A stretch of DNA of 64,000 nucleotides from Nitrospiria bacterium (GTDB taxonomy: Bacteria > Nitrospirota > Nitrospiria > JACQBZ01), in NCBI GenBank assembly GCA_035498035.1, contig DATKAN010000043.1, forward strand, positions 23,639-87,638. Direction: 5' to 3'. Of this stretch, positions 5,447 to 45,053 are shown in pieces (the stretch's first letter is position 1; every line of letters begins with the position of its first letter). Under the pieces are notes generated by a model. That model saw nothing but the letters and a program-made list of their open reading frames with translations, did not search any database and had not been told where the DNA came from. The position numbers and the translations under genes were made by a program.

Positions 5447-5484
5447 TAATTTAAAATGCTTGTTGCACCGATGGTTACAGGACC

Positions 5485-6357: not shown

Positions 6358-6374
6358 AAGACAAGGGGGACGCC

Positions 6375-9558: not shown

Positions 9559-10582
9559 AGGAGACTTTTTTCTCCCCGTGGATGACCTTTCCGATTAAAA
9601 ATGCCGGCTCACCCAAACTCTTGAGCCTCTCCATGGCCTGATCGGCCTGCTCGGGTCCGATGACGGCCACCATTCCGATCCCCATGTTGAAGACCCGATA
9701 CATTTCATCGGTGACGATCCCGCCCTGCTTTTCGAGCCATCCAAATACGGCCGGGACGGGCCAGCTCCCCCGTTTGATCCGGGCCTGACACCCTTCTGGA
9801 AGAATGCGCGGAATATTTCCGGTGAGTCCCCCTCCGGTGATGTGGGCCAATCCCTTGACATCCACATCGCGAACCAATTGCAGGACAGATTTGACATAAA
9901 TTTTGGTTGGGGTGAGAAGCTCGTCGCCCAGACGCTGGGTCCATCCGGGGATCCGATCCGTGAGCTTATGACCCGCCACCTCAAACGAAATCTTACGCGC
10001 CAGAGAAAACCCGTTGCTATGCAGACCGCTCGAGGCGAGGCCGATCAAGACATCCCCCGCTTTAATGCGGCTGCCATCAATCACCTGGCCTTTTTCGATC
10101 ACGCCCACCGCAAACCCGGCAAGGTCATAGACTCCCTCCGGATAAAATGAAGGCATCTCGGCCGTCTCTCCGCCCAGCAAGGCGCATCCGGCCTGTCGAC
10201 AGCCATTGACGATTCCGCGGATGATCTCCACTCCGGTCTGGGGCTGCAGTTTGCCGGTCGCGAGGTAGTCCAGAAAGAAAAGCGGCTCGGCGCCCGTTAC
10301 GACCACATCGTTGACGGACATGGCCACCAGATCGATTCCGACCGTATTGTGCCGGTTCATTTCAATGGCGATCCTGAGTTTCGTTCCGACCCCGTCGGTC
10401 CCGGAAACCAGCACGGGGTCTTTATACTTTTTAGCCTCCAGTCCGAACAATCCGCCGAATCCGCCAATATCGGTCAGAACTTCCGGACGGAACGTGGAAC
10501 GAACCAACGGCTTAATCGACCGGACAAACTCGTCACCGGCCTCGATGTCAACCCCGGCCCTCTTATAGGTAAGACGCGGCAT
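9551..10582 (-). CDS. purM: phosphoribosylformylglycinamidine cyclo-ligase (AIR synthetase)
   Basis: PurM family: N-terminal YKRAGVDIEAGDE... and AIR synthase-related domains; overlaps the purN start. Confidence 0.9.
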   Translation of the reverse strand: MPRLTYKRAGVDIEAGDEFVRSIKPLVRSTFRPEVLTDIGGFGGLFGLEAKKYKDPVLVSGTDGVGTKLRIAIEMNRHNTVGIDLVAMSVNDVVVTGAEPLFFLDYLATGKLQPQTGVEIIRGIVNGCRQAGCALLGGETAEMPSFYPEGVYDLAGFAVGVIEKGQVIDGSRIKAGDVLIGLASSGLHSNGFSLARKISFEVAGHKLTDRIPGWTQRLGDELLTPTKIYVKSVLQLVRDVDVKGLAHITGGGLTGNIPRILPEGCQARIKRGSWPVPAVFGWLEKQGGIVTDEMYRVFNMGIGMVAVIGPEQADQAMERLKSLGEPAFLIGKVIHGEKKVSYE

Positions 10583-11814: not shown

Positions 11815-13227
11815 CTACACCTTTTCTGAGGTCTTGTCTGCCTCATTTGCGGCAAGGATTCCGGGTTTTTTAATTCCGTGCTTTTCCAAACGGTATTGCA
11901 AGGTTTTATAGGTCAGCCCCAGTAGTTTAGCCGCTTTCATGATAATCCAGTCGGATTGCTCCATGGCCTTAAAAATCAATTCACGCTCAAGCTCATCCAG
12001 GGAGATACCTTCAGCGGGCAACTGCAGTCCGAGTCCCGTCATCGGGGACGGCAGCCGGCAGATTTCCGGAGGAAGATCGGCGACGTCGATCACCTCCTGG
12101 CCGCAAAAAAGAACCGCCCGTTCAATGGAGGACTCCAATTGACGAACATTTCCAGGCCACGAATACTCGAGCAGCTTTCGCATGGCCTCACGACTTACGC
12201 CTTGGACCGGCCTTTCCGTTTTTTGGCTGTAGATCCGGATGAAATGCTGTACCAACTCCGGGATATCCGTGCTGCGCTCACGCAACGGAGGAATTTGAAT
12301 CGAAATGACATTCAACCGGTAATAGAGGTCTTCACGGAACAGATCCTTCTTGATCTCCTGATCCAGGCGCTTGTTGGTGGCCGCAATGACACGGACGTCG
12401 ATGGCCGTCTCTTCGGATCCTCCGATCCGCCGGATCTGTCGTTCCTGAAGCGTGCGAAGCAACTTGCCCTGAAGATGAAGACTGAGATCGCCTACCTCGT
12501 CCAGAAAAAGGGTTCCGCCATCGGCCGCCTCGAATAGCCCGATTCGTCGGCCCGCCGCCCCCGTAAATGCACCCTTTTCGTAACCGAACAATTCGCTTTC
12601 GATCAGCGTATCGGGAATGGCGGCGCAATTAATCGCCTGAAAGGGTTTATTCTTCCTCGCGCTATTGAAATGAATGGCACGGGCCAAGAGTTCCTTTCCC
12701 GTACCGGACTCCCCGTTGATCAGGACGGTCGCGGTGCTGTTCGATATTTTCTTAACCACATCAAAAACTTCCTGCATCCGGGGATGATTTCCTATTATGT
12801 TATTTATATGAAATTTTTCTTGAAGTTGTTGTCGGAGCCGGCTGTTTTCTTTTATGAGAGAGATCTTTTCAAAGGCCCGTTTTACCGCGATCAGCAGTTC
12901 TTCCCGCTCCAGCGGTTTGGTGATGTAATCCAATGCCCCCAGCTTCATCGCCTCGACCGCCGAATCAATCGAACCGTGGGCCGTCATGATGATTACGGAC
13001 GCGGACGGGTTCAACTGAAAAATCTTTTGAACGATCCCTAAGCCCTCCGTATCCGGCAGCTTCAGATCCGTCAGGACCACATCATATTCCCCGTTTTGGA
13101 ATTTACCCACCGCCTCCTTTGCGGTCGAGGCAAGATCCACTTCATATTTTTCAGACCGGAGAATGAGCCCCATAATTTCACGCTGGGACCGCTCATCATC
13201 AATCACAAGGATATTGCCCGGCTTCAC
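11815..13227 (-). CDS. sigma-54-dependent response regulator (NtrC family)
   Basis: Receiver domain (ILVIDDE...DVVLTDLKLPD), AAA+ sigma-54 activator domain (GESGTGKE, GAFTGA, ESELFGYEKGAFTGA) and C-terminal HTH. Probable GTG start at ~13227 overlaps the kinase stop (GTGA); the ORF is open to 13296. Confidence 0.85.
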   Translation of the reverse strand: MKPGNILVIDDERSQREIMGLILRSEKYEVDLASTAKEAVGKFQNGEYDVVLTDLKLPDTEGLGIVQKIFQLNPSASVIIMTAHGSIDSAVEAMKLGALDYITKPLEREELLIAVKRAFEKISLIKENSRLRQQLQEKFHINNIIGNHPRMQEVFDVVKKISNSTATVLINGESGTGKELLARAIHFNSARKNKPFQAINCAAIPDTLIESELFGYEKGAFTGAAGRRIGLFEAADGGTLFLDEVGDLSLHLQGKLLRTLQERQIRRIGGSEETAIDVRVIAATNKRLDQEIKKDLFREDLYYRLNVISIQIPPLRERSTDIPELVQHFIRIYSQKTERPVQGVSREAMRKLLEYSWPGNVRQLESSIERAVLFCGQEVIDVADLPPEICRLPSPMTGLGLQLPAEGISLDELERELIFKAMEQSDWIIMKAAKLLGLTYKTLQYRLEKHGIKKPGILAANEADKTSEKV

Positions 13228-14696
13228 GCATGTACTCCTTCCATGGGAAGGGATATGGTGACGGTCGTTCCCATCCCCTTCACGCTGGCGACCCAAATGG
13301 TTCCGCCATGCTCTTCCAAAACCCGTTTTGTCAACGCCAGTCCCAGTCCGATGCCGAGTTTCTTGGTCGTAAAATAGGGTTCGAAGATCTTTTGAAGGTG
13401 GTCCGCTTCGATGCCGCAGCCGGTATCTTCAAAATGCACCAGGACTCGGCTGTTCTCGTCGTCCATTTGTGCATGAATCCGCAACACCCCCCCCTGGCTC
13501 ATGGCCTGAAGCGCATTGACCGTGATGTTCACAAAACAGTTTTTGATCTGTTCCACATCGACCAACACCCGCGGAAGATCGCGAATGCCCCGAGTCTCAA
13601 ATTGAACCCCTTGATCCGCTCCCTTGGGGAGGGCCAATTGGAGGACATCGGACAAAATGGCGGCCAAATCGGCCGATTGCATCTGCAGGCGAATCGGTTT
13701 CCCAAAATCAAGAAAATTTTCGATCATTCGGTTCAGCCGATGAATTTCGGTCTTGATGTTGACGACCAGTTTGTCGATTTCTTCCTTATCAATAAAACGA
13801 GCCCGATCCAACTGGACGCGCAAATGATCGATGGAGAGGTTGATCAGATTCAAGGGATTGCGGATTTCATGGGCGATCCCGGAAGCCAATTGGCCGACGG
13901 CCGAGAGATGTTCCGCATGGCGCAGGCGGCCTTCGAGGGATTTCTGCAGCCGGAGCTTTTCCACCATTTCATTGAAGCTTCGGGTCAGCTCGCCGATCTC
14001 CTCTCCGCCCCCCTGTACGACCAACGGAGTGCTCAAATCGCCGGCCGCAACGTTTTTGGCCGCTTCCACAACCTGTTTGATGGGACGGGTGTATCGCCAC
14101 GCCAGATAGAACGAGAGGAAGATCCCCATCGAGAATATCGCGATATGCACGGCCAGACGTGTATAGAAGCTTCGCCGGATCAGGCGGTTAAAATCATCCA
14201 TGATCATGATGATATGGACATAACCCAACTGCTCCCCACCGACAACGATCGGGACCAAAATGTTATAGGGCTTCTGGTCTTTTTTCGTTCCGGCGTCCTC
14301 TCCGATCCGTTCTGTAATGATCAGATCGCGATGCTTGGGATCCGGAGATCGCTCTTTCCGATGAGGATTTGAACTGGCGATGACTTGATTTTCGTTGCTC
14401 AGAATGGAAATTTCCTTTACCCCTTTCTTATTGAGCCGCTTGACGTAATCTCTCAAACGGGCCTCGTCCGTGGCCCCGTGCGTCGTCAGCTGTTCGACGC
14501 TGATCTGGATCGCCGTCGTCAGGTCCTCCGTGTCGGCCATGATTTCTCTGACGACCGCTTGCTCGGTCAGCCAGTAGAAGGCCAAGGAGGCCATCAAGGA
14601 TAACAACAAAAGCGAGAGCATCATGAGGAGAAGCTTGGTATTGAGCCGGAGATGCTCCAAGCGATTGGAGATAGTTCTCAATGCGGATCTTACCAT
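13224..14696 (-). CDS. sensor histidine kinase (periplasmic sensor, HAMP, HisKA, HATPase)
   Basis: Two TM helices flanking a ~130-aa periplasmic region, HAMP, H-box (SGIAHEIRNPLN), and N/G boxes (DTGCGIE, GLGLAL). Confidence 0.85.
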   Translation of the reverse strand: MVRSALRTISNRLEHLRLNTKLLLMMLSLLLLSLMASLAFYWLTEQAVVREIMADTEDLTTAIQISVEQLTTHGATDEARLRDYVKRLNKKGVKEISILSNENQVIASSNPHRKERSPDPKHRDLIITERIGEDAGTKKDQKPYNILVPIVVGGEQLGYVHIIMIMDDFNRLIRRSFYTRLAVHIAIFSMGIFLSFYLAWRYTRPIKQVVEAAKNVAAGDLSTPLVVQGGGEEIGELTRSFNEMVEKLRLQKSLEGRLRHAEHLSAVGQLASGIAHEIRNPLNLINLSIDHLRVQLDRARFIDKEEIDKLVVNIKTEIHRLNRMIENFLDFGKPIRLQMQSADLAAILSDVLQLALPKGADQGVQFETRGIRDLPRVLVDVEQIKNCFVNITVNALQAMSQGGVLRIHAQMDDENSRVLVHFEDTGCGIEADHLQKIFEPYFTTKKLGIGLGLALTKRVLEEHGGTIWVASVKGMGTTVTISLPMEGVHA

Positions 14697-15397
14697 TCAT
14701 GATCCTCCGTGAGACTTAATCCGAGACACCCGAGGACCTCCCGGAAGGGAATCCTCCCTTCGCGGATTAGGCGGGGGGGGTGAAACGTGGCATCGACAAT
14801 CGTGGAACTGTTTCCGCCACTTGTCTCCCCCCCATCGACAATGAGATCGAGATGCGTGCCCAGCGTTTCATGGACCTTCGAAGCCGTAGTGGCCTCGGGG
14901 TGGCCCGAAGGGTTGGCGCTTGTGGCCGTGATGGGTTGAGCGGCGGCCCGCAGAAGCTGCAAGGCCACCGGATGGGACGGAATCCGGATGCCGATTTTTC
15001 CGGTCCCCCCCGTCAGCGCGGAGGGCAGTCGCGGGGAAGCGGCCAATAAGAGCGTCAAAGGCCCCGGCCAGAACTTTCGGATGAGATTCCAGGCCTCCGG
15101 GGAAACGGCCACGATGATCCCTTCAGCCTTTTTGATGTCGTCGACGACGATTAGGATCGGCTTTCCTGCCTCCCGCCCTTTGACGACAAAAAGCCGCTCA
15201 ACCGCGGCTGAATTGAACGGGTCCACCCCCAAACCGTAGTAGGTCTCGGTCGGAAAAGCGATCATTCCACCCGAACGGATCCAATGGACGGCCTGTCCGA
15301 CCGCGTCCAGAGAGGGGTCGGAATCAGGGTGCACTGGATCAATTTTGACGACCCGCCCTTTGAATCCGTCTTGCTTTGGCTTCAACTTCTTCCTCAA
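14690..15397 (-). CDS. tsaC: L-threonylcarbamoyladenylate synthase (TsaC/YrdC/Sua5 family)
   Basis: YrdC-domain motifs (IAFPTETYYGLGVDP, SANPSG). True start is probably internal (GTG near 15334), since the ORF 5' end overlaps the purE 3' end. Confidence 0.7.
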   Translation of the reverse strand: MRKKLKPKQDGFKGRVVKIDPVHPDSDPSLDAVGQAVHWIRSGGMIAFPTETYYGLGVDPFNSAAVERLFVVKGREAGKPILIVVDDIKKAEGIIVAVSPEAWNLIRKFWPGPLTLLLAASPRLPSALTGGTGKIGIRIPSHPVALQLLRAAAQPITATSANPSGHPEATTASKVHETLGTHLDLIVDGGETSGGNSSTIVDATFHPPRLIREGRIPFREVLGCLGLSLTEDHEW

Positions 15398-15848
15398 GTT
15401 TATCTTTATAGTTTTTAATTTTTCGTGCTAATTCCTTATCGCCCACCCCCAATATTTGAACGGCCAGGATGCCCGCATTCTTCGCCCCGGCCTTCCCGAT
15501 AGCCATTGTTGCGACCGGAACCCCTCCCGGCATTTGCGCTGTCGAGAGAAGAGCGTCCAGACCGTTCAAGGAGGACGAATCGATCGGAACACCGATAACG
15601 GGCCGTGTCGTATGGGCCGCCACGGTACCGGCTAAATGGGCCGCCCCGCCTGCGCCCGCGATAAAGATCTCCACGCCCTTTTTCTCCGCCTCGGAAATAT
15701 ATCTCCGGGTCCAATCCGGAGAGCGGTGGGCCGAAGTAATGGCCAGTTCATGGGCCACACCGAAATTACCCAGCACCTCCGCCGCCTGTTCCATCACGGT
15801 CAAATCCGATTCACTGCCCATGACGATGCTGACCAATGGTTTTCGCAA
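15339..15848 (-). CDS. purE: N5-carboxyaminoimidazole ribonucleotide mutase
   Basis: PurE family (VSIVMGSESDL, GAGGAAHL). Confidence 0.9.
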   Translation of the reverse strand: MRKPLVSIVMGSESDLTVMEQAAEVLGNFGVAHELAITSAHRSPDWTRRYISEAEKKGVEIFIAGAGGAAHLAGTVAAHTTRPVIGVPIDSSSLNGLDALLSTAQMPGGVPVATMAIGKAGAKNAGILAVQILGVGDKELARKIKNYKDKLEEEVEAKARRIQRAGRQN

Positions 15849-15929
15849 TCGATTGCCTCCTTGAACTCCCGTTTGAACAGGGGACCCCCTGCCTTGATTT
15901 ACGTAATATAACCTTCCATGGTCTGTGGG

Positions 15930-16883
15930 TCAAGTCTTGACCGCATGGACAGGATGGGAGATAAACACCCACCCGAGGCCGCCAAGGACATTAAGCGAGG
16001 TATTCAGGATCAACCAGAGAACGGCAAAAGCCAAGGCCTGAGGGTTCGCAACCCCCGCCTGGGTCAAAAAATATACGTATGCGCCCTCTCGAACACCCAA
16101 GCCGTTCAAGCTGATCGGAACCATACCGGCCACGGTTACCAGGGGGATGAAAACAAAATAATATTCCCATGGGACGGAGACGTTCACCGCCAGACCGATG
16201 ATCATGCTGATGATAACGACGGACAGTTGGATAAAAAATGAGGCCGCAAGCGATGCCGCCATGAACCGAGGATTTTCCCAGTAGCGATAGGGCAATTCAT
16301 ACCTCCTCAAAAAACCTGGAAATGCAAATGGGATAAAAAGACCCAGTATCAGCAAGGCCGTCGCACCCAGTATGAAGGCGGTCATCCAGACCGGGACCGT
16401 CACCGAGCCGGCCAGCGATAGGGCAAAGGAGGTGATGCACAGAAGGGCGGTCATCCCGCTGATCCGATCGGCCAGGATAGTCGTCATCGCGCGCAGGATG
16501 TCGCTGCGACCCCCGGCTAAATAGTAGCATTTTCCGAGGTCACCCCCGATCGAAGTTGGAAGAAAGAGGTTGAAAAATAAGCCGACAAAGTAAAAAGCGG
16601 CCAGGCGACCGAAGGATTGCCGATAACCCTGAACCCGCGCCATAACCTGCCAACGAAGGATTCCGACAAACTGCAGCCCGAAAAAGCTGACCCAGGCCAG
16701 CACAAAATAGCCGACATGAAGATTCTGCAGCACGTGCCCCACCGAAGGGAGATCGATTTTTGAAAACAGAAAGCCGAGTAAGCCCAGACTGACGATCGCT
16801 TTCAGAGAGGTCGTCAGCCATCGGCGAGGCCCGGGCGATGGCGGAATGGAAATCGCGATTTTAGAAATTGGTGGCCAGGACAT
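15930..16883 (-). CDS. flippase-like integral membrane protein (lysylphosphatidylglycerol synthase TM-region / UPF0104 family)
   Basis: Polytopic membrane protein with composition typical of this family; overlaps the ArnT-like gene upstream. Confidence 0.6.
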   Translation of the reverse strand: MSWPPISKIAISIPPSPGPRRWLTTSLKAIVSLGLLGFLFSKIDLPSVGHVLQNLHVGYFVLAWVSFFGLQFVGILRWQVMARVQGYRQSFGRLAAFYFVGLFFNLFLPTSIGGDLGKCYYLAGGRSDILRAMTTILADRISGMTALLCITSFALSLAGSVTVPVWMTAFILGATALLILGLFIPFAFPGFLRRYELPYRYWENPRFMAASLAASFFIQLSVVIISMIIGLAVNVSVPWEYYFVFIPLVTVAGMVPISLNGLGVREGAYVYFLTQAGVANPQALAFAVLWLILNTSLNVLGGLGWVFISHPVHAVKT

Positions 16884-18522
16884 AGCCTCCCTGCTCCGAG
16901 CGGATGATCAGCTGAGGCATGGTATCCAAGACCGGGACCAAATGGATTTGGCTCAACACCACCGCACGGCCATGAGCCGATAAAAATCGGCGCAGGTCTT
17001 CCTCCTGCTTTGACTTAAAGATGACCGCCCCTCTGCGGGCATAAAACAATATGCTGGGTTTTTTCAGCCCGAAGACCACCAGAGGTTCCTCGGGACGAAT
17101 CCACCCGCGCGTTTCTTGAGTCAGGTTTCGCAACGGCACTTGAATATAGGAACTGACGGATGGAATGAAGTCGAACAGCAAGACAAATACAAAGACTCCC
17201 ATCATGAGAACCAACACCATAAAACCCGCCCACTGCCTCCCGAGGCGCAGCAGCGCATAGTAGGTCATCACCCCGATCAAGGGAACCCCGGCCATGACCA
17301 TCAACACCCCGTTCAACTCAATCGGCTGGGCCAGGAAGGGCGCCAAGGCTCCGAATTTTACCCGTGCCCATTCGATCCCTTGGGGAATAGACAAAATCAG
17401 GACGGCCGTAATCAGAGTCAGGCCGACCGTAAAGCCCATCGTAAGTCGGTCTTCCACCCGGACCGTTGACGGTGCCGCATCCATTCTCCGGTCCATATAA
17501 CGGGCCACCCAAATGGCCAAAGCCGGAACGGCGGGTGCGATATAGCTGGGAAGTTTGGTGCCGGCCAAGGTAAAGAAAAGGAAGACGACCGCGACCCATA
17601 GCAGAAGAAACCACTCCAACGGATGGTTCGCCGGAAAGAGCCGGAGATTTTTCCATCGCTCCGATAAGTCCTTGCCGGGGAACATGGAAACAACGGAAGC
17701 GGGAAGGAACGCCACCCATGGGAAAAAACCAATCGCCAGGATTCCCAGATAATAGAACGGGGCCCCGGCATGGCCTCCGAGAACGGACGTGAACCGCTCG
17801 ATATTATGGTGCAGGAAAAAAGATTTCCAAAAAGCCTCGCCGTGAAGGCGAAACATCGCCGCATACCACGGCAGGGCGATGGCGCCGAAGATCAAAATAC
17901 CCCATCCCGGTCGAAGATCAAGAATCAGTTTCCATCGGGGGCCAACGGTGAGGATGAAAAGAAAAATCGTCATTCCCGGCAGAACAAGGCCGACCGGACC
18001 TTTGGTCAAAACCGCCAGGGCGGCGCCCAGATAAATCCCGACGGCCCAGAGGGCGCGCTCTGTTTTGTAGAGCAGGTAGTAACTGGCCAGCGAGACCGTG
18101 ATAAAAAAAACCAAAAGCATATCGGTCAAGGCGGCATGGGATAGCGCTACCATCTCAAGATTACTGGCCAGGATGAGCATCGCCAACAATCCGGCTCTGG
18201 GGCTCGCGACCCGCCGGGTCAAACCATAGGTCACGACCAGCAGCGCGAGACCGAAGACCGCGGATGTCAATCGAGCCGCAAATTCGGACGGCCCGAAAAT
18301 CTTGAAGGCCGCTCCCATGAACCAGTACAGCAGAATGGGCTTTTCGTAAAAGGGCGAGTAATTAACCTGCGGAGTGATCCAATTACCGGTCTCAACCATT
18401 TCCCGGGTGGTTTCGGCGTAAATCGCCTCGTCCAAATCAAACAGCGGCACGGCCCCGAGCTGATAGAAGAAAAGAAACCCTCCCAGCATCAGCGCCGGCC
18501 AGAAACCGGTGTTTCGGGTCAT
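16861..18522 (-). CDS. ArnT/PMT-family glycosyltransferase (GT39/GT83, polyprenyl-phosphate-sugar dependent)
   Basis: N-terminal FFYQLGAVPLFDLDEAIYAETTREM...YSPFYEKPILLYW pattern characteristic of ArnT/PMT transferases; 553-aa multi-TM protein. Confidence 0.7.
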   Translation of the reverse strand: MTRNTGFWPALMLGGFLFFYQLGAVPLFDLDEAIYAETTREMVETGNWITPQVNYSPFYEKPILLYWFMGAAFKIFGPSEFAARLTSAVFGLALLVVTYGLTRRVASPRAGLLAMLILASNLEMVALSHAALTDMLLVFFITVSLASYYLLYKTERALWAVGIYLGAALAVLTKGPVGLVLPGMTIFLFILTVGPRWKLILDLRPGWGILIFGAIALPWYAAMFRLHGEAFWKSFFLHHNIERFTSVLGGHAGAPFYYLGILAIGFFPWVAFLPASVVSMFPGKDLSERWKNLRLFPANHPLEWFLLLWVAVVFLFFTLAGTKLPSYIAPAVPALAIWVARYMDRRMDAAPSTVRVEDRLTMGFTVGLTLITAVLILSIPQGIEWARVKFGALAPFLAQPIELNGVLMVMAGVPLIGVMTYYALLRLGRQWAGFMVLVLMMGVFVFVLLFDFIPSVSSYIQVPLRNLTQETRGWIRPEEPLVVFGLKKPSILFYARRGAVIFKSKQEEDLRRFLSAHGRAVVLSQIHLVPVLDTMPQLIIRSEQGGYVLATNF

Positions 18523-19151
18523 GATTTAAAGTACTCCAACTTAAGCCGCGAAGCCCACATCCCGATCAACACGCCCAAAACGGCCCCGACGAAGACGTCC
18601 GAGGCGAAATGGGCGCCGATATAAATCCGTGTAAAGGCCACGAGGACAGCGAGAGAATACCAGGCCCATTGGCCGGCCGGGTAGAAGGCGGACAGAACCG
18701 CCGCCATGGCAAAGGATGACAGGGCGTGTCCGGATGGAAGAGAGTCATGGCCGCTTTGAAAAGAAGGACCCCAATCGACGATCCCCTGATCCGCCAGTCT
18801 GGGCCGTGGCCGTCCGATCAGGTGCTTGATCGTCTGAACCGCAAGACCGGAAACCGCCAGGGCAATCAGGCTCGACACGGCGGCCTTCTTCAATTTAAGG
18901 TTTTCTCGCAGGGAGCCGATTCCGAGGAGAACGGCCGCAATAAGCGCCTGGACCCACCCGACTCCCAGCCCGGTCAGGAAATGCATGAACCTGAGCAAGA
19001 CGGGATCCCGCAGACCTTTAAAGACACGGTAGATCAGGCCGTCTTCAAGAATGATTAACGGAAAAAGCCCTATAAGGATGAGCGTCCAGGTCAAACCCTT
19101 TCGGGTCATCTGCAAACGATCGGCACAATCCGAGATCGGATTAATCATCAA
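18519..19151 (-). CDS. PAP2-family phosphatase (phosphatidic acid phosphatase type 2 / lipid phosphate phosphatase)
   Basis: PAP2 signature motifs KHLIGRPRP, PSGH, and SRIYIGAHFASD. Confidence 0.7.
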   Translation of the reverse strand: MMINPISDCADRLQMTRKGLTWTLILIGLFPLIILEDGLIYRVFKGLRDPVLLRFMHFLTGLGVGWVQALIAAVLLGIGSLRENLKLKKAAVSSLIALAVSGLAVQTIKHLIGRPRPRLADQGIVDWGPSFQSGHDSLPSGHALSSFAMAAVLSAFYPAGQWAWYSLAVLVAFTRIYIGAHFASDVFVGAVLGVLIGMWASRLKLEYFKS

Positions 19152-20112
19152 ACCCCATCTTCTCTCGCAGAATATAAAGCGGACGGCGTTTGACTTCTTC
19201 GTAAGTTCGTCCCAGATACTCCCCCATCATTCCCAGAACAATCAGCTGGACACCGGCCAAGAAAAGGACCGCCACCATGAGTGAGCCCCACCCGTGAATG
19301 GGAAATCCCAGGAGCTCGGTCTGATTGAAGAAAAGACGCCCGAAAATCACAAACAGCCCGAAAAGAAAACTCACGACCGACACGATCAGCCCGAGATAGA
19401 TCGCCACGCGCAATGGAGCAAACGAAAAAGAGGTCACCCCATCCCAGGCCAGCTTGAGCATCTTGCCGAAGGGGTATTTTGTGCTTCCGGCAAACCGTTT
19501 ACTTCGTGGAAAAAGAACCCCCGTCTGGCGAAAGCCTACCCAGAGCGTCAGCCCGCGGACAAAGCGGTGACGTTCCCCAAGCGACCGAAACACGTCCACG
19601 ACTTTTCGGTCCAGCAGACGGAAGTCGCCGGCATCGACCGGAAGATCAAGATTCCCGATCTTTTGCATGAGGGCGTAAAACAGACGGGCCGTGGTCCGCT
19701 TAAACCAGGTGTCCGTTTCTCGACTTTCGCGAACGCCATAAACCACCTCATATCCGTCGCGCCATTTGTCCAGCAACCGAGGGATCGTCTCGGGCGGATC
19801 CTGAAGATCCGCGTCGATCACCACAACCGCATCCCCCTTCGCGTGATCCAATCCCGCCGTCAAGGCGATCTCGTGACCGAAATTTCTGGAGAACTGCAGC
19901 ACCTTGACGGATTTATCCCCCTGCATCAGTTCCGACAGAATCTTTGCGGTGCCGTCTTGGCTTCCATCATCCACAAAAATGATCTCCGTGCCCGATAAAC
20001 CGCGCAGTTCTGTAAGGACCGCGTGAAGCCGCTTGTAGAATTCCTGAAGAACCGCCTCTTCATTGTAAACCGGAACCACCACGCTCAGGAGGGGTCTATC
20101 CGGAATGGTCAT
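19141..20112 (-). CDS. family-2 glycosyltransferase (ArnC / dolichyl-phosphate mannose synthase-like)
   Basis: GT2 DXD region (VVVPVYNEE, IFVDDGSQDGT, VVIDADLQDPP) plus two C-terminal TM helices. ATG near 20112 with AGGAGG SD; the ORF is open to 20193. Confidence 0.8.
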   Translation of the reverse strand: MTIPDRPLLSVVVPVYNEEAVLQEFYKRLHAVLTELRGLSGTEIIFVDDGSQDGTAKILSELMQGDKSVKVLQFSRNFGHEIALTAGLDHAKGDAVVVIDADLQDPPETIPRLLDKWRDGYEVVYGVRESRETDTWFKRTTARLFYALMQKIGNLDLPVDAGDFRLLDRKVVDVFRSLGERHRFVRGLTLWVGFRQTGVLFPRSKRFAGSTKYPFGKMLKLAWDGVTSFSFAPLRVAIYLGLIVSVVSFLFGLFVIFGRLFFNQTELLGFPIHGWGSLMVAVLFLAGVQLIVLGMMGEYLGRTYEEVKRRPLYILREKMGFDD

Positions 20113-21412
20113 GTCGGCCTCCTGTCGCCTTGAGCCCTTCGAGATCCCGGGTAGCCTTGAGACCGATGTCCATCCGGCAATGCATGCCTTCAAACCGGAT
20201 CCGGCTGATCGCCTCGTAGGCGAGCTCCCGGGCTTGATGAAAATCGCGCCCGCTGGCCGTTACACCCAAGACGCGTCCTCCGGCCGTCACCAAGTTTCCA
20301 TCACGAAGTACCGTGCCGGCATGGAATACCACCACACCGTTCTTGGCCTCGGCCTGTTCGATCCCCCGGATCGGTCGACCGGATTCATAGGTCGCCGGAT
20401 ATCCTTTTGCAGTGAGAACGACGCAGACCGAAACCTTCGGACTCCAACGGGCGCGGATGCGATCCAAGGCTCCGACCGTCAAGGCCTCAAAAATTTCCAC
20501 CAGATCGCTTTCAAGTCGGGTTAAGATCACTTGGGTCTCGGGATCTCCGAAACGAGCGTTGTACTCCAAAACCTTCGGGCCGTTTTGGGTCAGCATCAGA
20601 CCCGCATACAGTATCCCTTGAAACGGCCGTCCCTCTTTGGCCAACCCGTCGATAGTGGGTCGGACGATTTCCCGAAGGACTTGTTCCTGCAGAGCTTCCG
20701 AAAGAACGGGCGCGGGTGAATAGGCGCCCATGCCGCCCGTGTTGGGACCCTGATCGTGATCAAAAATGCGTTTATGATCCTGCGACGTTACCATCGGGAC
20801 GATCGACTTTCCATCGGTGAAGACCAGGAAAGAGGCCTCTTCGCCTTCCAAGCGCTCCTCCAACAAAATCTGATTTCCGGCTTCACCGAATGTTTTCCGC
20901 CGCATGATCAGGTCGATCGCCTGAATCGCCTCGGTCTCATCCTGCGCCATGATGACCCCTTTGCCGGACGCCAGCCCGTCCACCTTAACCACGATAGGAC
21001 CCCTGTGATCTTTGGCATACTGCATCGCCGGTTCCGGTTCGCGAAAAACCCGGGCATGAGCGGTGGGAATCCGATGGCGTTCCATGAACGATTTAGAGAA
21101 GGCCTTGCTGGATTCGATCTCCGCCGCGGACTTGGACGGCCCGACGATCCGGAGTCCGGCTTGGCGAAAACAGTCCGCGATCCCCATCGTCAAGGGTCCC
21201 TCCGGACCCACGACGGTTAAATCAATCGCCTGGCTTATTGCAAAATCCAGGAGGCCGTTCAAGTCTTCTGCGGGGAGGGGGACACAACGGGCGTGACGGC
21301 CAATCCCGGGATTGCCGGGTGCGCAATAGAGCATTTCCACCCTGGGGCTCTGGGCCAACTTCCAGACCAGGGCATGCTCCCGACCGCCGCTTCCAATGAC
21401 GAGGATTTTCAT
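20096..21412 (-). CDS. purD: phosphoribosylamine--glycine ligase
   Basis: PurD family ([22 protein letters not shown]-grasp domain). Start taken at the internal ATG (~21412); the ORF is open to 21475. Confidence 0.9.
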
Positions 21413-21530
21413 GGATGAAATTTTGGGCGTACCGTTGTAGGGGCAGGCCCCCGTGCTGGCCCTCTGGACGGGCAACCCCAGGGGGTCGTCCCCACGAAAT
21501 CACGCGAGGGTCTCTCAGAAAACCAAAAAA

Positions 21531-23099
21531 TTAATGTCTAAAATGACGCATGCCGGTCATCACCATGGCCATGTCGTGTTCATCGGCGGCCCGGATGACC
21601 TCTTCATCCTTGATCGACCCCCCGGGCTGGATGACCGCCCTGACGCCCGCTTTCGCGGCCTCGTCCAAACCATCGCGAAAAGGGAAGAAGGCGTCCGAGG
21701 CCATCACGGTTCCGGCCAGCGGGGATTGCGCTTTCATCATGGCAATTTTCACCGAATCGACCCGGCTCATCTGTCCGGCACCGATTCCGATCGTCTGGCC
21801 CGGTCGCGCATAAACGATGGCGTTTGACTTGACATGCTTGCAGACAATCCAGGCAAAGGCCATGGCTTCGTACTCTTCATCCGTGGGTTTGCGCTTCGTG
21901 ACGACCTTCAGTTTTCTCAGATCCTCGATCCGGCCCAGGTCGCGGTCCTGTAAAATCAACCCCCCGACGACCCGCTTGATGTCCATCTCGCCTCGTCGTT
22001 CCCAAGTCACTTTCAAATCAGGGCCGACATCCAGCAGACGAAGATCCTTCTTCTTTTTAAACACGTCCAGGGCGCCGCGTTCAAAGCCGGGGGCGATCAC
22101 GATCTCGACAAACATCCTGGCGATCTCTTCCGCCGTCTCGACATCCACAGGGCGGTTGAAAGCGATGACCCCGCCGAAGGCCGACACCGGATCCGTGGCC
22201 CGGGCCTTCGTGTAGGCTTCGAGGATTGTTTCTCCGGTGGCCACCCCGCACGGGTTGTTGTGCTTGATGATCACGGCCGCCGTCTCGTTAAATTCCTTCA
22301 CGAGCTCCAGGCCGGCGTTGGCGTCCAGAAAATTATTGAAGGACATCGCCTTGCCGTGCAGTTGTTTGGCCGTCGACACCGAAGGCTCGGAGAGCTGGAA
22401 CTCGCGATAGAAAGCGGCCTGCTGGTGCGGATTCTCCCCGTAACGGAGATCCTCGACCTTCTCAAACTGCAGCGTGAAGATGCCGGGAAATCGTACGCGA
22501 TCCGGTTCTTTCCCTTGGTTCTCAAGATAGGAGGAGATCACGCTGTCATAACGGGCGGTGTGGTTGAAGACTTTTTTCGCAAGTCCCAGACGCGTTTCCC
22601 GGGAAATCGTCCCGTTGTGGCTTCGAAGCTCTTCCAACACTTTCGGATAATCACGGGGGTCGACGATGACCGTCACGTGCTCGAAGTTTTTGGCCGAGGA
22701 CCGCAGCATGGCCGGTCCGCCGATGTCGATGTTCTCGATCGCCTCTTCGAAACGGACGTTCGGCTTGGCCACGGTCGCTTCGAAGGGATAGAGATTCACC
22801 GCGACGAGATCGATCGGCTCCAGGCCCTGCTGCTTCATTTGGGCCACATGCGTCGGATCGTCCCGTTTCGCCAAGAGTCCGCCGTGAATCTTGGGATGAA
22901 GCGTCTTGACGCGGCCGTCCAGCATCTCCGGAAAGCCGGTGAATTCAGCCACATCCTTGACCGGAATGCCCGCCTCTTTTAATGTCTTGGCCGTTCCCCC
23001 GGTGGAGAGGATCTCGACCCCCAGCGCGGCCAGCCCCTTGGCCAACTCGACCACGCCTTCTTTATTCGACACGCTGATTAATGCCCGTTGAATCTTCAT
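21531..23099 (-). CDS. purH: bifunctional AICAR transformylase / IMP cyclohydrolase
   Basis: PurH family (MGS-like domain [10 protein letters not shown]...STGGTAK and AICARFT domain). ATG at ~23099 is preceded by a GAGGA SD; the ORF is open further upstream. Confidence 0.9.
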
Positions 23100-23121: not shown

Positions 23122-23685
23122 CTACCCCGCGCTGAACCAATACCGCAAACCGATTGCGAAGATGCCCAGGGCGACCGCCAGGGCCGTTCCGTCTTCGCTG
23201 TTTTCATAAAACCATTTCCGTTCCCACCGACCGGTTCCCCGTCCCGGATAGGGGTGAAGGCTTGGCAGATAATCCGGAACGGCCCGATCATAATCGTCCC
23301 AGGCCTGACCGAAATGCTCGCGCAACCTTTTCCCTTCGCGTTTCTTTTTGAACGGAGCATAGTAAACAAAAAAAATCGCCAGACCCATGACGAGAAGATA
23401 AAGGTTCCGGGCCATGAGGCAGAATCCGATCAGGATCAAAAGCGTCCCAAGATAGAGCGGATTCTTCACATAAGCGTAGGGCCCGGTAGTCGTGACCTCT
23501 TTGGTTTTTTTTAAATGGCCCGCGGCCCAGACCCGTAACGCTTCTCCAGCGAGAACGATCAGGAGACCCGGAATAAACCCGCCGAGGGTCGGACGGGCGA
23601 AGATGATCAGAAGGATCAGGGCGAGATAGACCGGGACTGTTTTTATCGTTACGCGCTTGTATCGCTCGGCCAAGGGTGTCGCCAC
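23122..23685 (-). CDS. isoprenylcysteine carboxyl methyltransferase (ICMT) / phospholipid methyltransferase-family membrane protein
   Basis: Multi-TM protein with [15 protein letters not shown] and a downstream [17 protein letters not shown] region resembling the ICMT/PEMT signature; the usual RHP is replaced by KNP. Confidence 0.5.
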
Positions 23686-23981
23686 GTTCTCTCCGTATAC
23701 TAGGGGCTCGCGACGTCCCCTCCACCCGCGAAGAGGGGGGAGCCCCCCCTCGCCCGCTTGGCTCGCTGGATTCGGACAAGGGAAACCTGAACCTCACTTG
23801 AATCCGCATAGCGAGCGCGATTTCCGCCTGTGAAGGCGGATCGGCGAGCGAATAAAAAAATATAGACTTTTTCCCCACGGATCGAAGAACCCTCGGCTGG
23901 GTAGCCGGGGTTCTTCAAAAGTGTCGGTAGAATACCAGATACCCGGCGGAAATTCAAGGAGGAATTGATTCCCCCGTCCAT

Positions 23982-24866
23982 TTATGCGGCTCTCGGACGC
24001 CGCTCGGGATCAAGGGCATCACGCAGGGCGTCGCCCAGGACGTTGAAGGCGACCATCGTCAGAAACAAAACAAGGCTCGGGAACAAAATCAGATGGGGAT
24101 AGTACTTCATCGCGCTCCAGCCCTCGTTCGCCATGCTGCCCCAGCTGGCAAACGGGGGCGCGATTCCGAGGCCGATAAAACTCAAGGTGGATTCGGCCAG
24201 GATCGCGGCCGGTATGCGGAATGTCAGGGTCACGATCAGCACGCCCAGCGTATTGGGAAGAATATGGACGAGCAGGATCCGGTGATGCGGCGCGCCGACG
24301 GCGCGGGCGGCCTCCACATAGCTGAACTCCCGCAGCCTCAAGACCTCTCCTCGAATGATCCGCGCCACCGTCACCCAGCTCACGAGGCTTAAGGCCAGAA
24401 ATATCCCCAGTACCCCCCGTCCGATCGTCACCGTGATCAGAATAATCAACAGGAGGTCCGGCAGCGCATAGACCAGATCCACGAACCGCATGAGGAGGTT
24501 GTCCGTTCTTCCTCCCACGTATCCGGACGCGGCGCCGTAAACCGTGCCGAACATCACAGCAAACAGCGCCGTAAAGACCCCGACCGCCATGGACATCCGC
24601 GCGCCGAAAAGCAATCGGGAAAAAAGGTCCCGTCCGAGACGGTCCGTACCCATCCAGTGTTGCGGACTCGGGCCCTGAAGGATGGAATGGGTATCCTGCT
24701 GATCGTATGGATAGGGCGCCAGCCATGGAGCGGCCAGCGCCGCCACCCCGATCAACAGGATAAATCCCCCGCTGATGAGGATTCTGGAATGGGATCGAAT
24801 GAATCGCTGAACCGTCATGAGATTCCGCACGCGGGACCCGGAATTCCGCCGGCCCGTCTCCGCCAC
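23982..24866 (-). CDS. oppC: oligopeptide/dipeptide ABC transporter permease (OppC/DppC-like)
   Basis: BPD_transp_1 permease with EAA-like loop (EAARAVGAPHHRILLVHILPN). Confidence 0.8.
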   Translation of the reverse strand: MAETGRRNSGSRVRNLMTVQRFIRSHSRILISGGFILLIGVAALAAPWLAPYPYDQQDTHSILQGPSPQHWMGTDRLGRDLFSRLLFGARMSMAVGVFTALFAVMFGTVYGAASGYVGGRTDNLLMRFVDLVYALPDLLLIILITVTIGRGVLGIFLALSLVSWVTVARIIRGEVLRLREFSYVEAARAVGAPHHRILLVHILPNTLGVLIVTLTFRIPAAILAESTLSFIGLGIAPPFASWGSMANEGWSAMKYYPHLILFPSLVLFLTMVAFNVLGDALRDALDPERRPRAA

Positions 24867-24869
24867 CCT

Positions 24870-25793
24870 CTAATGATCCCTAATCCGCATCCTCGGATCC
24901 AACCATATATAAACCAGGTCCACCACGATGTTCGCCGCCACAATCAGCACGGCGTAGATCAGCGTCACCCCCATGATCAGCGGGTAATCACGATTGGTTA
25001 CGGCCGTGATAAAATATCGACCCATTCCCGGAACCGAAAAGATAAATTCAACCACAAAGGACCCGGTGACCAGCGTCGCCGTCAACGGACCGAGGAAGGA
25101 TACCACCGGAGTGATCGAATTTTTCAGGGCATGCTTGAAGAGTACCCGCCGCTCGCCGAAACCCTTGGCCCGGACGGTCCGTATGAAATCCTTATTTAGA
25201 ACTTCCAGCATGCTCGACCGGGTCAACCTCGCGATATAGGCCGCGGGCAACAGGGCCAGGGTGACGGCGGGAAGGACACTGTAACGCCATCCCTCCCAAA
25301 GCGCCGCCGGAAACAGGTGAAGACGGTAACTGAAAATCAAGATGAGGAACGTGCCGATGACAAAACTCGGCACCGAAATCCCGGCCGTGGCCAGAAACAT
25401 GGCGGCGTGGTCCATCCAGGAAAGCGGCCGTGCGGCCGCAAGGATCCCGGCGCCGACACCCAGGAGGATCGAAATCAAAACGGCCCAAAGGCCGAGTTGC
25501 ATCGAAACCGGAAAGGTCTCCCGGATCATGTCGTTCACATTCCGTCCGAGATATTTATACGAGGGCCCGAAGTCCCCCCGCAGGAGGTCTCCAAGATAAA
25601 AAACATACTGGGTTAAAACGGGCCGATCCAAATGGTATTTGGAATCGACATTCGCCCGGATTTCGGGCGGCAGTGATTTTTCCTGGTCAAAGGGTCCTCC
25701 GGGGATCACATGCATCAGAACGAAGGTCGCCGTGGCCACCAGCCATAGCACGGGGATTCCCCAGGCCAATCTCTTCAGAGTATATCCTATCAA
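24870..25793 (-). CDS. oppB: oligopeptide/dipeptide ABC transporter permease (OppB/DppB-like)
   Basis: Permease with N-terminal MIGYTLKRL...HVIPGGPFD and conserved loop RTVRAKGFGERRVLFKHALKN. Confidence 0.8.
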   Translation of the reverse strand: MIGYTLKRLAWGIPVLWLVATATFVLMHVIPGGPFDQEKSLPPEIRANVDSKYHLDRPVLTQYVFYLGDLLRGDFGPSYKYLGRNVNDMIRETFPVSMQLGLWAVLISILLGVGAGILAAARPLSWMDHAAMFLATAGISVPSFVIGTFLILIFSYRLHLFPAALWEGWRYSVLPAVTLALLPAAYIARLTRSSMLEVLNKDFIRTVRAKGFGERRVLFKHALKNSITPVVSFLGPLTATLVTGSFVVEFIFSVPGMGRYFITAVTNRDYPLIMGVTLIYAVLIVAANIVVDLVYIWLDPRMRIRDH

Positions 25794-27379
25794 GGTTTCT
25801 CCAGGCGGACGTCCTTCAACTCGAGCAGCTCGAGGGGATTGATTCGAAGTCCGCGGACGTAAGGTTTGATCACCCAGTTCTGGGTCGCCACGAAGAGCGG
25901 CATGATCGCCGCATCCGTTTCAAGAAGTATTCGCTGGGCTTCATCGTAGGCCTTCTGCCTGTGGACAGGGTCGGAATCGGCCGAGGCGGATCGGATCAGC
26001 TCATCGTACCGATCGTTTCTCCACCGGGTCCGATTGTTCCCGCTGGTCGAGGTGAACAAATTCATGAAATTATCCGGATCGGGATAATCGGCTCCCCACC
26101 CCAGGCGGAACAAGGGCGGCGGGTCCGTCTGAAGCTGCTTGAGATAGACCTTCCATTCCTGGTTGTCCAGCCGGACTTCCACGCCCAGGTTCCGTTTCCA
26201 TTGCGCCTGGAGATTCTCGGCGATCAGGCTGTTTTCCGGGCTGGTATTGAAAACCGCCGTGACGGTCGGGAAACCCCGCCCGTCCGGAAAACCCGCCCCG
26301 GCCAGCAGCCTTCGCGCGGCTTCGGGATCGAAGGGCAGACCGATCGCGGGGTTATGGTAGGGCATTCCCGGAGGAACCCAGAAGGTCGCCGGGATCTCGC
26401 CCCGTTTCAGGATGGCGGGAAATTCCGTACGGTCGATCGCCATTGAAAAGGCGCGACGGATTCGGGGATCCGTGAATGGCGCCTTCTGCACATTAAAGCC
26501 GTAATAATATCCGCGGAGGATAGGGGCCGTTACATATTCGGACCTCCCGCGGTAGGTGGCCATCGCCTCGGGCGGAACCGTGGCCATTTCCAGATCACCG
26601 GTCTCGTAAAGGGTCAACGCGGTCGTGGTTTCATTGACGACGAACAGGGTCACCTTCCTCAGTGCGGGTTCGGGTCCGTAGTAATAGGGGTTTGGAGACA
26701 AGGTGAGCTTATATTCGTGCCGCCATTCGCCCAGCATGAAAGGGCCGTCGGTCACGATCCGGCCCGGCTCGGTCCATCTCTCACCGAATTTCTCGACGAT
26801 ATCGCGGCGCATGGGGAAGGTGACCATGAACGTGGTGATGCTCGGGAAAAAAACGATCGGTTTTCTCAGACGGACCTCAAGCGTCCGCTTGTCCAGCGCG
26901 CGGACCCCGACCGAGTCCGGTCGATCCGCCTTTCCGGTGTTATAATCCTCGGCGCCCTCGATGTCGTACAGAAAGTAGGCGTACTCCGCAGCGGTTTTCG
27001 GATTCAAGAGGCGCTTCCAGGAATACTCGAAATCTCCGGCCGTGACCGGTTCTCCGTCGCTCCAGCGGGCGTCTTCACGAAGGTGAAAAAGATAGGTGCG
27101 GCCATCGGGTGAGACGTCCCAGGAACGGGCCACGGCCGGGCGCGGACGGAGATGTTCGTCATATTCCGTGAGACCTTCCATCAGGTTGATCAAAACGTCG
27201 AACGAAACGCTGTCGGTGGCCAGATTCCAATCGAGCGTGGGCGGTTCGTTCGAAAGCGTCATCCGAAAGGTCGATCCATCCAAGGCCCGGGGGGCGCGCG
27301 CCCCGGCGCGGACAAACACGACAGCCAACACCAGTCCAACGATCACGGTCCCTGTGATGATTCTTCGCTCCATCGGCAA
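25790..27379 (-). CDS. oppA: ABC transporter substrate-binding protein, peptide/nickel family 5 (OppA/DppA-like)
   Basis: Signal peptide and family-5 solute-binding fold motifs; 529 aa. Confidence 0.8.
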   Translation of the reverse strand: MPMERRIITGTVIVGLVLAVVFVRAGARAPRALDGSTFRMTLSNEPPTLDWNLATDSVSFDVLINLMEGLTEYDEHLRPRPAVARSWDVSPDGRTYLFHLREDARWSDGEPVTAGDFEYSWKRLLNPKTAAEYAYFLYDIEGAEDYNTGKADRPDSVGVRALDKRTLEVRLRKPIVFFPSITTFMVTFPMRRDIVEKFGERWTEPGRIVTDGPFMLGEWRHEYKLTLSPNPYYYGPEPALRKVTLFVVNETTTALTLYETGDLEMATVPPEAMATYRGRSEYVTAPILRGYYYGFNVQKAPFTDPRIRRAFSMAIDRTEFPAILKRGEIPATFWVPPGMPYHNPAIGLPFDPEAARRLLAGAGFPDGRGFPTVTAVFNTSPENSLIAENLQAQWKRNLGVEVRLDNQEWKVYLKQLQTDPPPLFRLGWGADYPDPDNFMNLFTSTSGNNRTRWRNDRYDELIRSASADSDPVHRQKAYDEAQRILLETDAAIMPLFVATQNWVIKPYVRGLRINPLELLELKDVRLEKP

Positions 27380-29426: not shown

Positions 29427-29524
29427 GGACCGTGGTTTCCTTTAAAATAATTCCCCAGTGAACATAGCCACCGAGAGTGGGGGGCCCGGTCAGCCTCAAC
29501 CGGCGGGGAGGGTGACACGAGCCC

Positions 29525-45005: not shown

Positions 45006-45053
45006 GTGTTATGTGGGCTTATCTATACCAGACCATGAAACGGTTTGTCAACT

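Follow-up and report, generated by a model that had tools for sequence, protein, structure and literature searches.

A predicted periplasmic lipid-glycosylation module with an integral PAP2 phosphatase located between purD and purE in a Nitrospiria bacterium

The genome of a Nitrospiria bacterium (assembly GCA_035498035.1) contains, within the 64,000-nucleotide stretch analysed here (contig DATKAN010000043.1, positions 23,639 to 87,638 of the forward strand; hereafter the window), a cassette of four overlapping minus-strand genes located between the purine biosynthesis genes purD and purE. The cassette encodes a GtrB-like family 2 glycosyltransferase, the predicted polyprenyl-phosphate hexosyltransferase (GT2; 19141..20112, PF00535 133 bits), a PAP2 integral-membrane lipid phosphatase (18519..19148, PF01569 88 bits), an ArnT-like GT-C glycosyltransferase of the GT83 type with a C-terminal periplasmic domain (16861..18522) and a UPF0104/LPG_synthase_TM protein with the flippase domain of MprF (15930..16883). 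The four genes are strongly supported as one periplasmic glycosylation module. With a probability of roughly 0.55 this would be a self-contained lipid-glycosylation module, a three-component system complemented with a phosphatase, that performs a phosphate-for-sugar swap on lipid A. In the proposed mechanism, the GT2 would act at the cytoplasmic face, using a nucleotide sugar to load undecaprenyl phosphate (Und-P) with a hexose, most probably glucose, another common hexose or an N-acetylhexosamine. The MprF-type UPF0104 protein would flip the resulting polyprenyl-phosphate-sugar into the periplasmic leaflet. At the periplasmic face, PAP2 would strip a phosphate from the acceptor lipid, presumably the 1- or 4'-phosphate of lipid A, and the ArnT-like GT-C would pass the sugar from the carrier lipid to this acceptor. 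Such a swap would resemble the one operated by LpxE with RgtF, or LpxF with RgtD, in rhizobia and Aquifex.

The GT-C protein, as modelled, is an ArnT-like, GT83-type enzyme displaying the full ArnT architecture. Its sole sequence match in the PDB is ArnT of Cupriavidus metallidurans (5EZM, E=8.6e-34). An AlphaFold2 (AF2) model computed from an alignment of 17 homologues, with a predicted local distance difference test score (pLDDT) of 88.6 and a predicted template-modelling score (pTM) of 0.90, is aligned by Foldseek with the ArnT structures 5F15/5EZM at template-modelling (TM) scores of 0.79-0.83, and of 0.81-0.83 for 5F15, over ~570 columns (E=9e-24), the C-terminal periplasmic domain included. 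The next fold after ArnT is that of the AglB/OST oligosaccharyltransferases (TM ~0.5), and the structures of Pmt1, Pmt2 and Pmt4 cover only the N-terminal core of the model (TMq 0.33-0.47). No PMT chain was returned by the PDB sequence search with GT-C at E<=0.01, and although the protein matches PF02366 at 72 bits (and PF13231 at 65 bits), the PF02366 model covers ArnT-like proteins too. Identity as a protein O-mannosyltransferase (GT39, PMT) is not favoured, given the poor match to PMT structures and PAP2 being the conserved partner. An earlier note on this DNA had named lipid A modification and bacterial protein O-mannosylation as the logic of the cassette and had proposed GT39 against GT83 as a check. 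Its idea of lipid-carrier glycosylation of the ArnC/ArnT type with a phosphatase stands, the fold favours GT83, and protein O-mannosylation is disfavoured. The GT2, PAP2, ArnT-like and UPF0104 domain calls of the same note proved correct in Pfam, NCBIfam and structural matches.

At the residue level, GT-C D31/E32, E60/K61, D134, R243 and Y327 align to ArnT D55/E56, E84/K85, D158, R270 and Y345, while D29, E32, K61, D134, R243, K323 and Y327 are invariant in the 17 homologues (32-66% identity). The catalytic residues, whose absence from the ArnT-like protein would by the earlier note have refuted its proposal, are therefore in place. For ArnT D158 and R270, the roles are reportedly those described by Petrou et al. 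in 2016. Those of ArnT D55/E56 (the first-loop acidic motif), E84/K85 and Y345 (near the carrier-lipid phosphate) are summarised in PMC7801869. Against the ArnT equivalog model NF009784, GT-C scores 162 bits and does not reach the cutoff of 567, and neither the window string nor the related loci examined contain an ArnA, ArnB or ArnD domain; GT-C is thus not an ArnT orthologue. A plasmid search with GT-C returned only ArnT-type genes of Ralstonia, Pantoea and Cupriavidus (~32% identity) and no useful annotated PAP2 cluster.

The GT2 protein matches Synechocystis GtrB sll0501 (5EKP) with E=1.5e-99 and 51% identity over residues 9-321 of 323, and the match with ArnC structures is much weaker (E=2.7e-51). 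It contains a DDGS motif, a DXD motif (DAD) at residue 100 and two C-terminal hydrophobic helices at ~238-256 and ~278-296. Since the end-to-end match with GtrB exceeds that with ArnC and is accompanied by the DXD motif and the two C-terminal helices, the protein is, as judged from its alignments, a GtrB-type polyprenyl-phosphate glycosyltransferase with a cytoplasmic catalytic domain and two C-terminal transmembrane helices. Among relatives, GT2 shows the highest conservation in the string, at 82-93% identity vs 72-90% for purD.

The UPF0104 protein scores 118 bits with PF03706 (threshold 33.4) over model positions 3-299 of 302, and 57.8 bits with TIGR00374 (cutoff 43.2). Its AF2 model (pLDDT 81.9) has MprF chains as all six of its best structural matches (TMq 0.58-0.65), and no non-MprF structure exceeds TMq 0.21. 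The modelled protein thus has the MprF flippase-domain fold, and it is predicted to be a flippase for a lipid-linked sugar, a substrate suggested by the genetic context.

The signature motifs of the PAP2 protein are intact and comprise KX6RP (KHLIGRPRP, 108-116), PSGH (138-141) and TRX5HX3D (TRIYIGAHFASD, 173-184), the last corresponding to the SRX5HX3D signature of the family. Its best solved relative is LpxE, the lipid A 1-phosphatase of Aquifex aeolicus (6EBU, E=4e-11, 46 bits). The link between this phosphatase and the ArnT-like transferase is provided by gene fusions, which were counted over the best 120 GT-C homologues. A PAP2 domain occupies the N-terminus in 35/120 of these proteins, which are 700-800 residues long. 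The window PAP2 scores 55-143 bits against the N-terminal domains of the 35 fusions, vs at most 99 bits against stand-alone PAP2 proteins outside its clade and 46 bits against LpxE. The fused domains were recovered by phmmer over the GT-C match set, the fusions having been missed by a word-index search for PAP2 homologues. By these scores, PAP2::GT-C fusions are widespread and the window PAP2 and GT-C are their split counterpart. No fusion of PAP2 to a flippase was seen among the proteins examined.

The neighbourhoods of ArnT-like genes display the same association. Among 79 diverse ArnT-like metagenome loci (28-45% identity), 16 have a PAP2 gene next to GT-C on the same strand (upstream of it in 9, downstream in 7), a GtrB/ArnC-type GT2 is adjacent in 13 and a UPF0104 gene is nearby in 5. 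Individual related loci, numbered here with the prefix L, hold larger parts of the module. A PAP2::GT-C fusion lies with GT2 and the flippase gene in L011, away from purine genes, and L154 is similar. In L172 (GCA_039794365.1, 3197-10116) GT-C, GT2 and the flippase gene lie immediately upstream of the outer-membrane biogenesis genes bamA-skp, with no purine context, and L106 is a further recurrence of the module outside that context. The flippase gene accompanies GT-C and/or GT2, without PAP2, in L102-L104, L106 and L172. The named hosts of GT-C homologues belong to diderm phyla (Nitrospirota, Binatia, Nitrospinota, Methylomirabilis and cyanobacteria). In L121, L131, L147, L160 and L161, GT-C and GT2 are joined by a YdjC-like deacetylase (PF04794, 175 bits), an architecture that we take to be that of the lipid A hexosamine systems of Francisella NaxD and Bordetella Lgm (LgmC-type). 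Domain scans of the string proteins revealed no deacetylase in the window cassette. An enrichment of two-component sensors near ArnT-like genes was also considered and set aside, the 22 loci concerned being not clearly above the expectation from abundance.

Fusion and adjacency together suggest that a single acceptor is first dephosphorylated and then glycosylated. The donor of ArnT-type enzymes releases Und-P rather than undecaprenyl diphosphate (Und-PP), so that the GT-C reaction needs no carrier-recycling phosphatase, and the acceptor is therefore the most plausible substrate of a phosphatase that is fused to the transferase. On this analysis lipid A is probably the acceptor, and one polypeptide or tight pair may dephosphorylate and then glycosylate it. 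The assignment of lipid A as the PAP2 substrate follows from the fusion and adjacency with the ArnT-like GT-C. Several observations weigh against this reading. The PAP2 protein is equally near LpxE (46 bits) and models of Und-PP phosphatases (SepP 44, YbjG-type 34), all of them far under their cutoffs, and Aquifex LpxE also dephosphorylates C55-PP (PMC6581854). In L171 the purD-purE interval holds just PAP2 and the flippase gene, and PAP2 stands alone in L016, so PAP2 also works without the glycosyltransferases. ArnT as the closest solved structure does not fix the acceptor, since the TMTCs, which are eukaryotic protein O-mannosyltransferases, are also closest to ArnT (PMC7801869). Finally, the GT2 of L010 and L011 is ArnC-like, and hence the sugar is not constant across the family.

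The same observations on PAP2 favour an alternative in which identical machinery serves an acceptor other than lipid A, for example a protein, peptidoglycan, a polysaccharide of the cell surface or a different membrane lipid, while PAP2 is a housekeeping phosphatase of Und-PP/Und-P that keeps the carrier available. Enzymes of the ArnT fold do include protein and polysaccharide glycosyltransferases (PMC7801869; PMC11127046). This alternative deserves attention but is considered unlikely: a donor of the Und-P-monosaccharide type needs no phosphatase, yet PAP2 is fused to GT-C in more than a quarter of the best homologues and adjacent to it in both gene orders. In addition, the named hosts are diderm, the deacetylase-containing relatives have the architecture typical of lipid A hexosamine modification, and the module of L172 adjoins bamA-skp.

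As a side observation on the donor sugar, the module contains two GT2 subfamilies, GtrB/PgfS-like in the clade of the window and ArnC-like in L010 (11760-12725) and L011 (12271-13242), where the gene stands on the opposite side of GT-C. The sugar therefore probably differs among lineages, and the two subfamilies suggest a switch of donor sugar during the evolution of the cassette.

The closest experimentally grounded precedent for the phosphate-for-sugar swap is rgtE-lpxE-rgtF, to which the cassette is likened on the basis of the published description. In this system LpxE/LpxF removes the 1- or 4'-phosphate of lipid A and RgtF/RgtD adds galacturonic acid (GalA) from the bactoprenyl-phosphate donor made by RgtE; the genes rgtE-lpxE-rgtF (GT2, PAP2, GT-C) are clustered in Mesorhizobium and Oligotropha, where the product is lipid A 1-GalA (PMC5644692, PMC7663294). 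The rgtE-lpxE-rgtF and lpxF plus rgtD systems of Mesorhizobium loti, Oligotropha carboxidovorans, Rhizobium leguminosarum and Aquifex comprise the same three enzyme classes as the cassette, clustered in the rgtE-lpxE-rgtF case, and share its logic of removing a lipid A phosphate and putting a sugar in its place. The gene order of the cassette, GT2-PAP2-GT-C, is that of Oligotropha OCA5_c19730-19750 (PMC7663294). In contrast to the rgt system, the cassette GT2 is closest to the glucosyltransferase GtrB, which leaves room for a sugar other than GalA; the cassette also includes a dedicated UPF0104 flippase-like gene, PAP2 and GT-C form one fused protein in relatives, and the host belongs to Nitrospirota.

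The comparison with arnBCADTEF, which places 4-amino-4-deoxy-L-arabinose (Ara4N) on lipid A, bears on a second alternative, namely that the sugar is added onto a lipid A phosphate that is kept, with PAP2 acting as an LpxT-like phosphotransferase or as a physical regulator of GT-C. The ArnT fold and active-site residues are common to both systems, ArnT being the closest solved relative of GT-C; the donor GT2 belongs to the ArnC/GtrB family, with the ArnC-like form in L010 and L011; and LpxT, a PAP2-family protein, binds ArnT in Pseudomonas aeruginosa and modulates its effect (PMC13142001). Unlike arnBCADTEF, the cassette has a PAP2 partner and is devoid of ArnA, ArnB, ArnD and the ArnE/F flippases, as well as of a deacetylase. 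Its GT2 is GtrB-like rather than ArnC-like, its PAP2 has a lipid A 1-phosphatase as best solved relative, and GT-C stays far below the ArnT equivalog cutoff (162 vs 567 bits). Decoration of a retained phosphate is thus held to be improbable.

Three-component periplasmic glycosylation requires a synthase, a flippase and a GT-C (PMC11127046). The GtrA/GtrB/GtrC, CsbB/GtcA/YfhO and pentofuranose systems (PMC11127046) have in common with the cassette a polyprenyl-phosphate-sugar synthase, a flippase and a GT-C. They differ from it in that the cassette flippase candidate is of the MprF/UPF0104 family and not GtrA, SMR or MATE, the GT-C is ArnT-like and not GtrC- or YfhO-like, and an integral, often fused PAP2 is present as a fourth part. 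The archaeal association of an AglD-type GT2, an arCOG00563 GT-C and UPF0104 (Makarova et al. 2015, PMC5898192) represents the same family triad, with UPF0104 predicted to be a lipid-linked-sugar flippase. In contrast to the cassette, this triad belongs with N-glycosylation, uses dolichol and lacks PAP2; it is likewise a prediction only (PMC5898192). The flippase-domain fold is also shared with MprF and with GpgSDF/HexSDF, and in GpgSDF the UPF0104 protein accompanies a membrane-lipid-modifying glycosyltransferase (PMC12713373). In contrast to these systems, the cassette has no aminoacyl-phosphatidylglycerol synthase domain, GT4 or deacetylase; its UPF0104 protein is partnered by a GtrB-like GT2 and a GT-C, which argues for a carrier-lipid donor rather than a glycosylated phospholipid as end product.

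The position between purD and purE is itself conserved. The order PEMT-purH-purD-GT2-PAP2-GT-C-flippase-purE-tsaC is kept in L007, L008, L013 and L014 (GT-C 60-85% identical), and the purD-purE site is found in rearranged form in L010, L101 and L171, being conserved down to 52% purD identity. This lowest identity is that of L010, in which PAP2, GT-C, an ArnC-like GT2, the flippase gene and NYN lie between purD and purE. The L101 locus begins with purD, PAP2 and GT-C, and at 62% purD identity the site of L171 contains only PAP2 and the flippase gene (5344-6969). Two relatives carry deletion scars. GT2 is joined to the flippase gene in L017 (6905-6950), where a remnant of the GT-C 3' end marks the joint loss of PAP2 and GT-C. 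In L016 (5126-5260) the first GT2 codons (MTMPDQPSL) are left, followed by an intact PAP2 and tsaC, and no GT-C, flippase gene or purE is present at the site. Thus, conservation with variable fill and scars (L016, L017, L171) argues for an old site with an accessory, decaying content. The taxonomic breadth of the site was assessed on about a dozen metagenomic contigs. A contig scan with purD provided five true relatives (L013-L017); the other 73 loci belong to unrelated bacteria sharing short peptide patterns, and they gave no GT-C, PAP2 or flippase match (tblastn E<=1e-8) and are uninformative on the cassette.

The arrangement of this site raises the question of whether PAP2 and UPF0104 were its ancestral pair, a flippase and phosphatase for a phosphorylated lipid (for instance new Und-PP or a phospholipid) to which the glycosyltransferases were added later with a separate role. 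Such an origin would suit L171, which is of intermediate divergence, and the fact that the window clade, L010 and L171 all keep the same two ends of the site, with PAP2 next to purD and the flippase gene next to purE; in MprF, UPF0104 proteins do flip modified phospholipids. In contrast, the flippase gene stays with GT2 in L017 while PAP2 and GT-C are lost, it accompanies GT-C and/or GT2 without PAP2 in five other loci (L102-L104, L106 and L172), and PAP2 is fused to GT-C and never seen fused to the flippase. L171 could also just as well have arisen by deletion, as the scarred L016 and L017 did. An ancestral pair of separate function is accordingly regarded as quite improbable.

The earlier note had described the cassette as an insertion in a purine operon with an unusual coupling to nucleotide metabolism, and this claim is weakened by the synteny comparison it had called for: the arrangement is ancestral and conserved in the lineage, and the module also occurs outside the purine context. 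Coupling to purine metabolism, through a pentofuranose donor derived from phosphoribosyl pyrophosphate (PRPP) or through purine-responsive co-regulation, would fit the conserved purD-purE position and the overlap of the purD stop with the GT2 start, and PRPP-based three-component systems with a phosphatase step exist (PMC11127046). This explanation is nonetheless given very little credence. The donor synthase is a GtrB-like GT2 of the Leloir type and not a UbiA-type polyprenyl-phosphate phosphoribosyltransferase, for which the PRPP/pentofuranose link was rejected. An Rfam scan of the whole window at gathering thresholds detected only a cobalamin riboswitch and a tRNA, with no purine or ZTP riboswitch near purH, purD or purE, and riboswitch control of the cassette or purine genes was discarded on this result. 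The module is found without purine genes in L011, L154 and L172, and a pur gene is nearby in only 2/79 of the diverse ArnT-like loci. Together with the decay of the site and the promoter-like element that precedes purE, these data make the purD-purE placement look like an old, lineage-specific neighbourhood, which was kept as an accident of how the genome is organised and does not reflect functional coupling.

The promoter-like element in question, a putative sigma-70-like TTGACC-N17-TATATT on the minus strand (15905..15933, read from 15933 to 15905), lies in the gap between the flippase gene and purE and is the best such site in a scan of the region (10/12), its -35 hexamer overlapping the flippase stop codon. 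Both hexamers, TTGACC-N17-TATA(T/G)T, are kept in L007, L008, L013, L014 and L017 while the spacer varies. Since this conserved element precedes purE, purE-tsaC is probably a separate transcription unit; internal promoters, which the earlier note had named as a feature that would speak against its proposal, are thus represented by one predicted element. A scan for intrinsic terminators revealed none that was convincing in the flippase-purE gap. The cassette is probably co-transcribed with PEMT-purH-purD as the tail of that unit, given the overlapping frames between purD and the flippase gene.

There is precedent for every component and for every pairing: GtrB/ArnC with GT-C, LpxE with RgtF, UPF0104 with GT2 and GT-C (PMC5898192), and LpxT with ArnT (PMC13142001). 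No description of the four-part combination, of the frequent PAP2::ArnT-like fusion or of an MprF-type flippase candidate in this use was found in the literature consulted. The biochemistry would not surprise a specialist, and the fusion family and the flippase candidate are the testable leads. A broader proposal, held more tentatively and at somewhat less than even odds, is that the cassette and its fused PAP2::GT-C relatives represent a widespread lipid A phosphate-for-sugar swap in Nitrospirota, Binatia and other environmental diderms, with the MprF-type UPF0104 protein as the long-sought dedicated undecaprenyl-phosphate-sugar flippase. If so, uncultured Nitrospiria would swap an anionic lipid A phosphate for a sugar, with effects on the charge of the outer membrane, on how well the cells resist cationic peptides and metals, and on their recognition by the immune system. 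In the PAP2::ArnT fusions there would be a compact natural case of coupled dephosphorylation and glycosylation, and UPF0104 would become the fourth protein family of candidate lipid-linked monosaccharide flippases. To our knowledge, no candidate flippase family for lipid-linked monosaccharides has been demonstrated biochemically, and the cassette would provide the first tractable genetic handle on the undecaprenyl-phosphate-sugar flippase class. For annotation, the labels "GT39 / Ara4N transferase" and "undecaprenyl-diphosphatase" on cassette genes are probably wrong in detail, and a place within a purine gene cluster is no evidence of a purine-related function.

The string to which the cassette belongs is entirely encoded on the minus strand. 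It begins with a PEMT/ICMT-like membrane methyltransferase gene (23122..23685, PF04191 38.5 bits), followed at 22 nucleotides by purH, the AICAR formyltransferase/IMP cyclohydrolase (21531..23099; TIGR00355 724 bits vs cutoff 528, and NF002049 777 bits, above cutoff), and by purD, the glycinamide ribonucleotide (GAR) synthetase (20096..21412, TIGR00877 552 bits vs cutoff 288). Downstream of the cassette are purE, the N5-CAIR mutase (15339..15848, TIGR01162 205 bits), and the gene of a Sua5/TsaC-family threonylcarbamoyl-AMP synthase (14690..15397, TIGR00057 197 bits vs cutoff 123). All purine enzymes of the window exceed the curated NCBIfam cutoffs, including purM (9551-10582) and purN (8887-9558), which lie further downstream on the same strand.

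An overlap of 17 nucleotides (20096-20112) joins the end of purD to the start of GT2, whose ATG is preceded by an AGGAGG ribosome-binding site. GT2 and PAP2 overlap by 8 nucleotides (ATGATTAA; 19141-19148) with the ATG of the gene callers, or by 11 with a TTG start, PAP2 and GT-C overlap through ATGA (18519-18522), and GT-C and the flippase-like gene share 23 nucleotides (16861-16883). The 81-nucleotide gap between the flippase-like gene and purE is the sole real gap among the purD-to-purE junctions. The gene order and identities given in the earlier note are borne out by domain and family scores, all eight genes being present and co-oriented on the minus strand, and its four overlaps are seen in the sequence, with the two possible starts for PAP2. 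Its description as one overlapping string holds from purD to the flippase gene, is interrupted by the 81-nucleotide gap and misses the PEMT gene, with which the string starts one gene upstream. An identical GT-C protein and the same gene order occur on seven independent metagenome contigs, and the string is therefore not an assembly artefact. The GC content of the cassette (0.54-0.58) is nearly equal to that of the flanks (0.57-0.59), and its strong AT skew is as expected from membrane-protein coding, so there is no sign of recent acquisition; a recent horizontal insertion was rejected on these grounds and on the conservation of the arrangement across relatives.

Upstream of the PEMT gene, three co-oriented ABC-transporter genes encode an Opp-type solute-binding protein and two permeases (23982-27379, minus strand). 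Downstream of tsaC, on the same strand, are a HAMP histidine kinase and a sigma-54-dependent response regulator (11815-14696), and two small co-oriented ORFs separate the regulator from purM. The kinase start overlaps the tsaC stop. The window, L013 and L010 carry the pair, which L007, L008 and L171 lack. This patchy occurrence points to a variable insert, between tsaC and purM-purN, in the purine supercluster.

In all relatives seen (L007, L008, L010, L013-L017 and L171) the PEMT gene comes first in the string, and its protein has a weak NCBIfam match to Leptospira LmtA, a lipid A 1-phosphate methyltransferase (42.6 bits vs cutoff 325). The methyltransferase may or may not be part of the function of the cassette; counting it, membrane-lipid-modifying genes stand on both sides of purH-purD. 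A dispersed, GC-rich intergenic repeat of ~80 nucleotides was detected by nhmmer in the PEMT gene leader (23689-23769, minus strand) and at 29459-29535 (plus strand). It recurs in L013 at 15598-15679, 1285-1360 and 3236-3309, one of these copies being inserted in the flippase-purE spacer, and may be a repetitive extragenic palindromic (REP)-like or miniature inverted-repeat transposable element (MITE)-like element of this lineage. The cobalamin riboswitch (RF00174, 102 bits) lies at 44854-45018 on the minus strand and bears no relation to the cassette.

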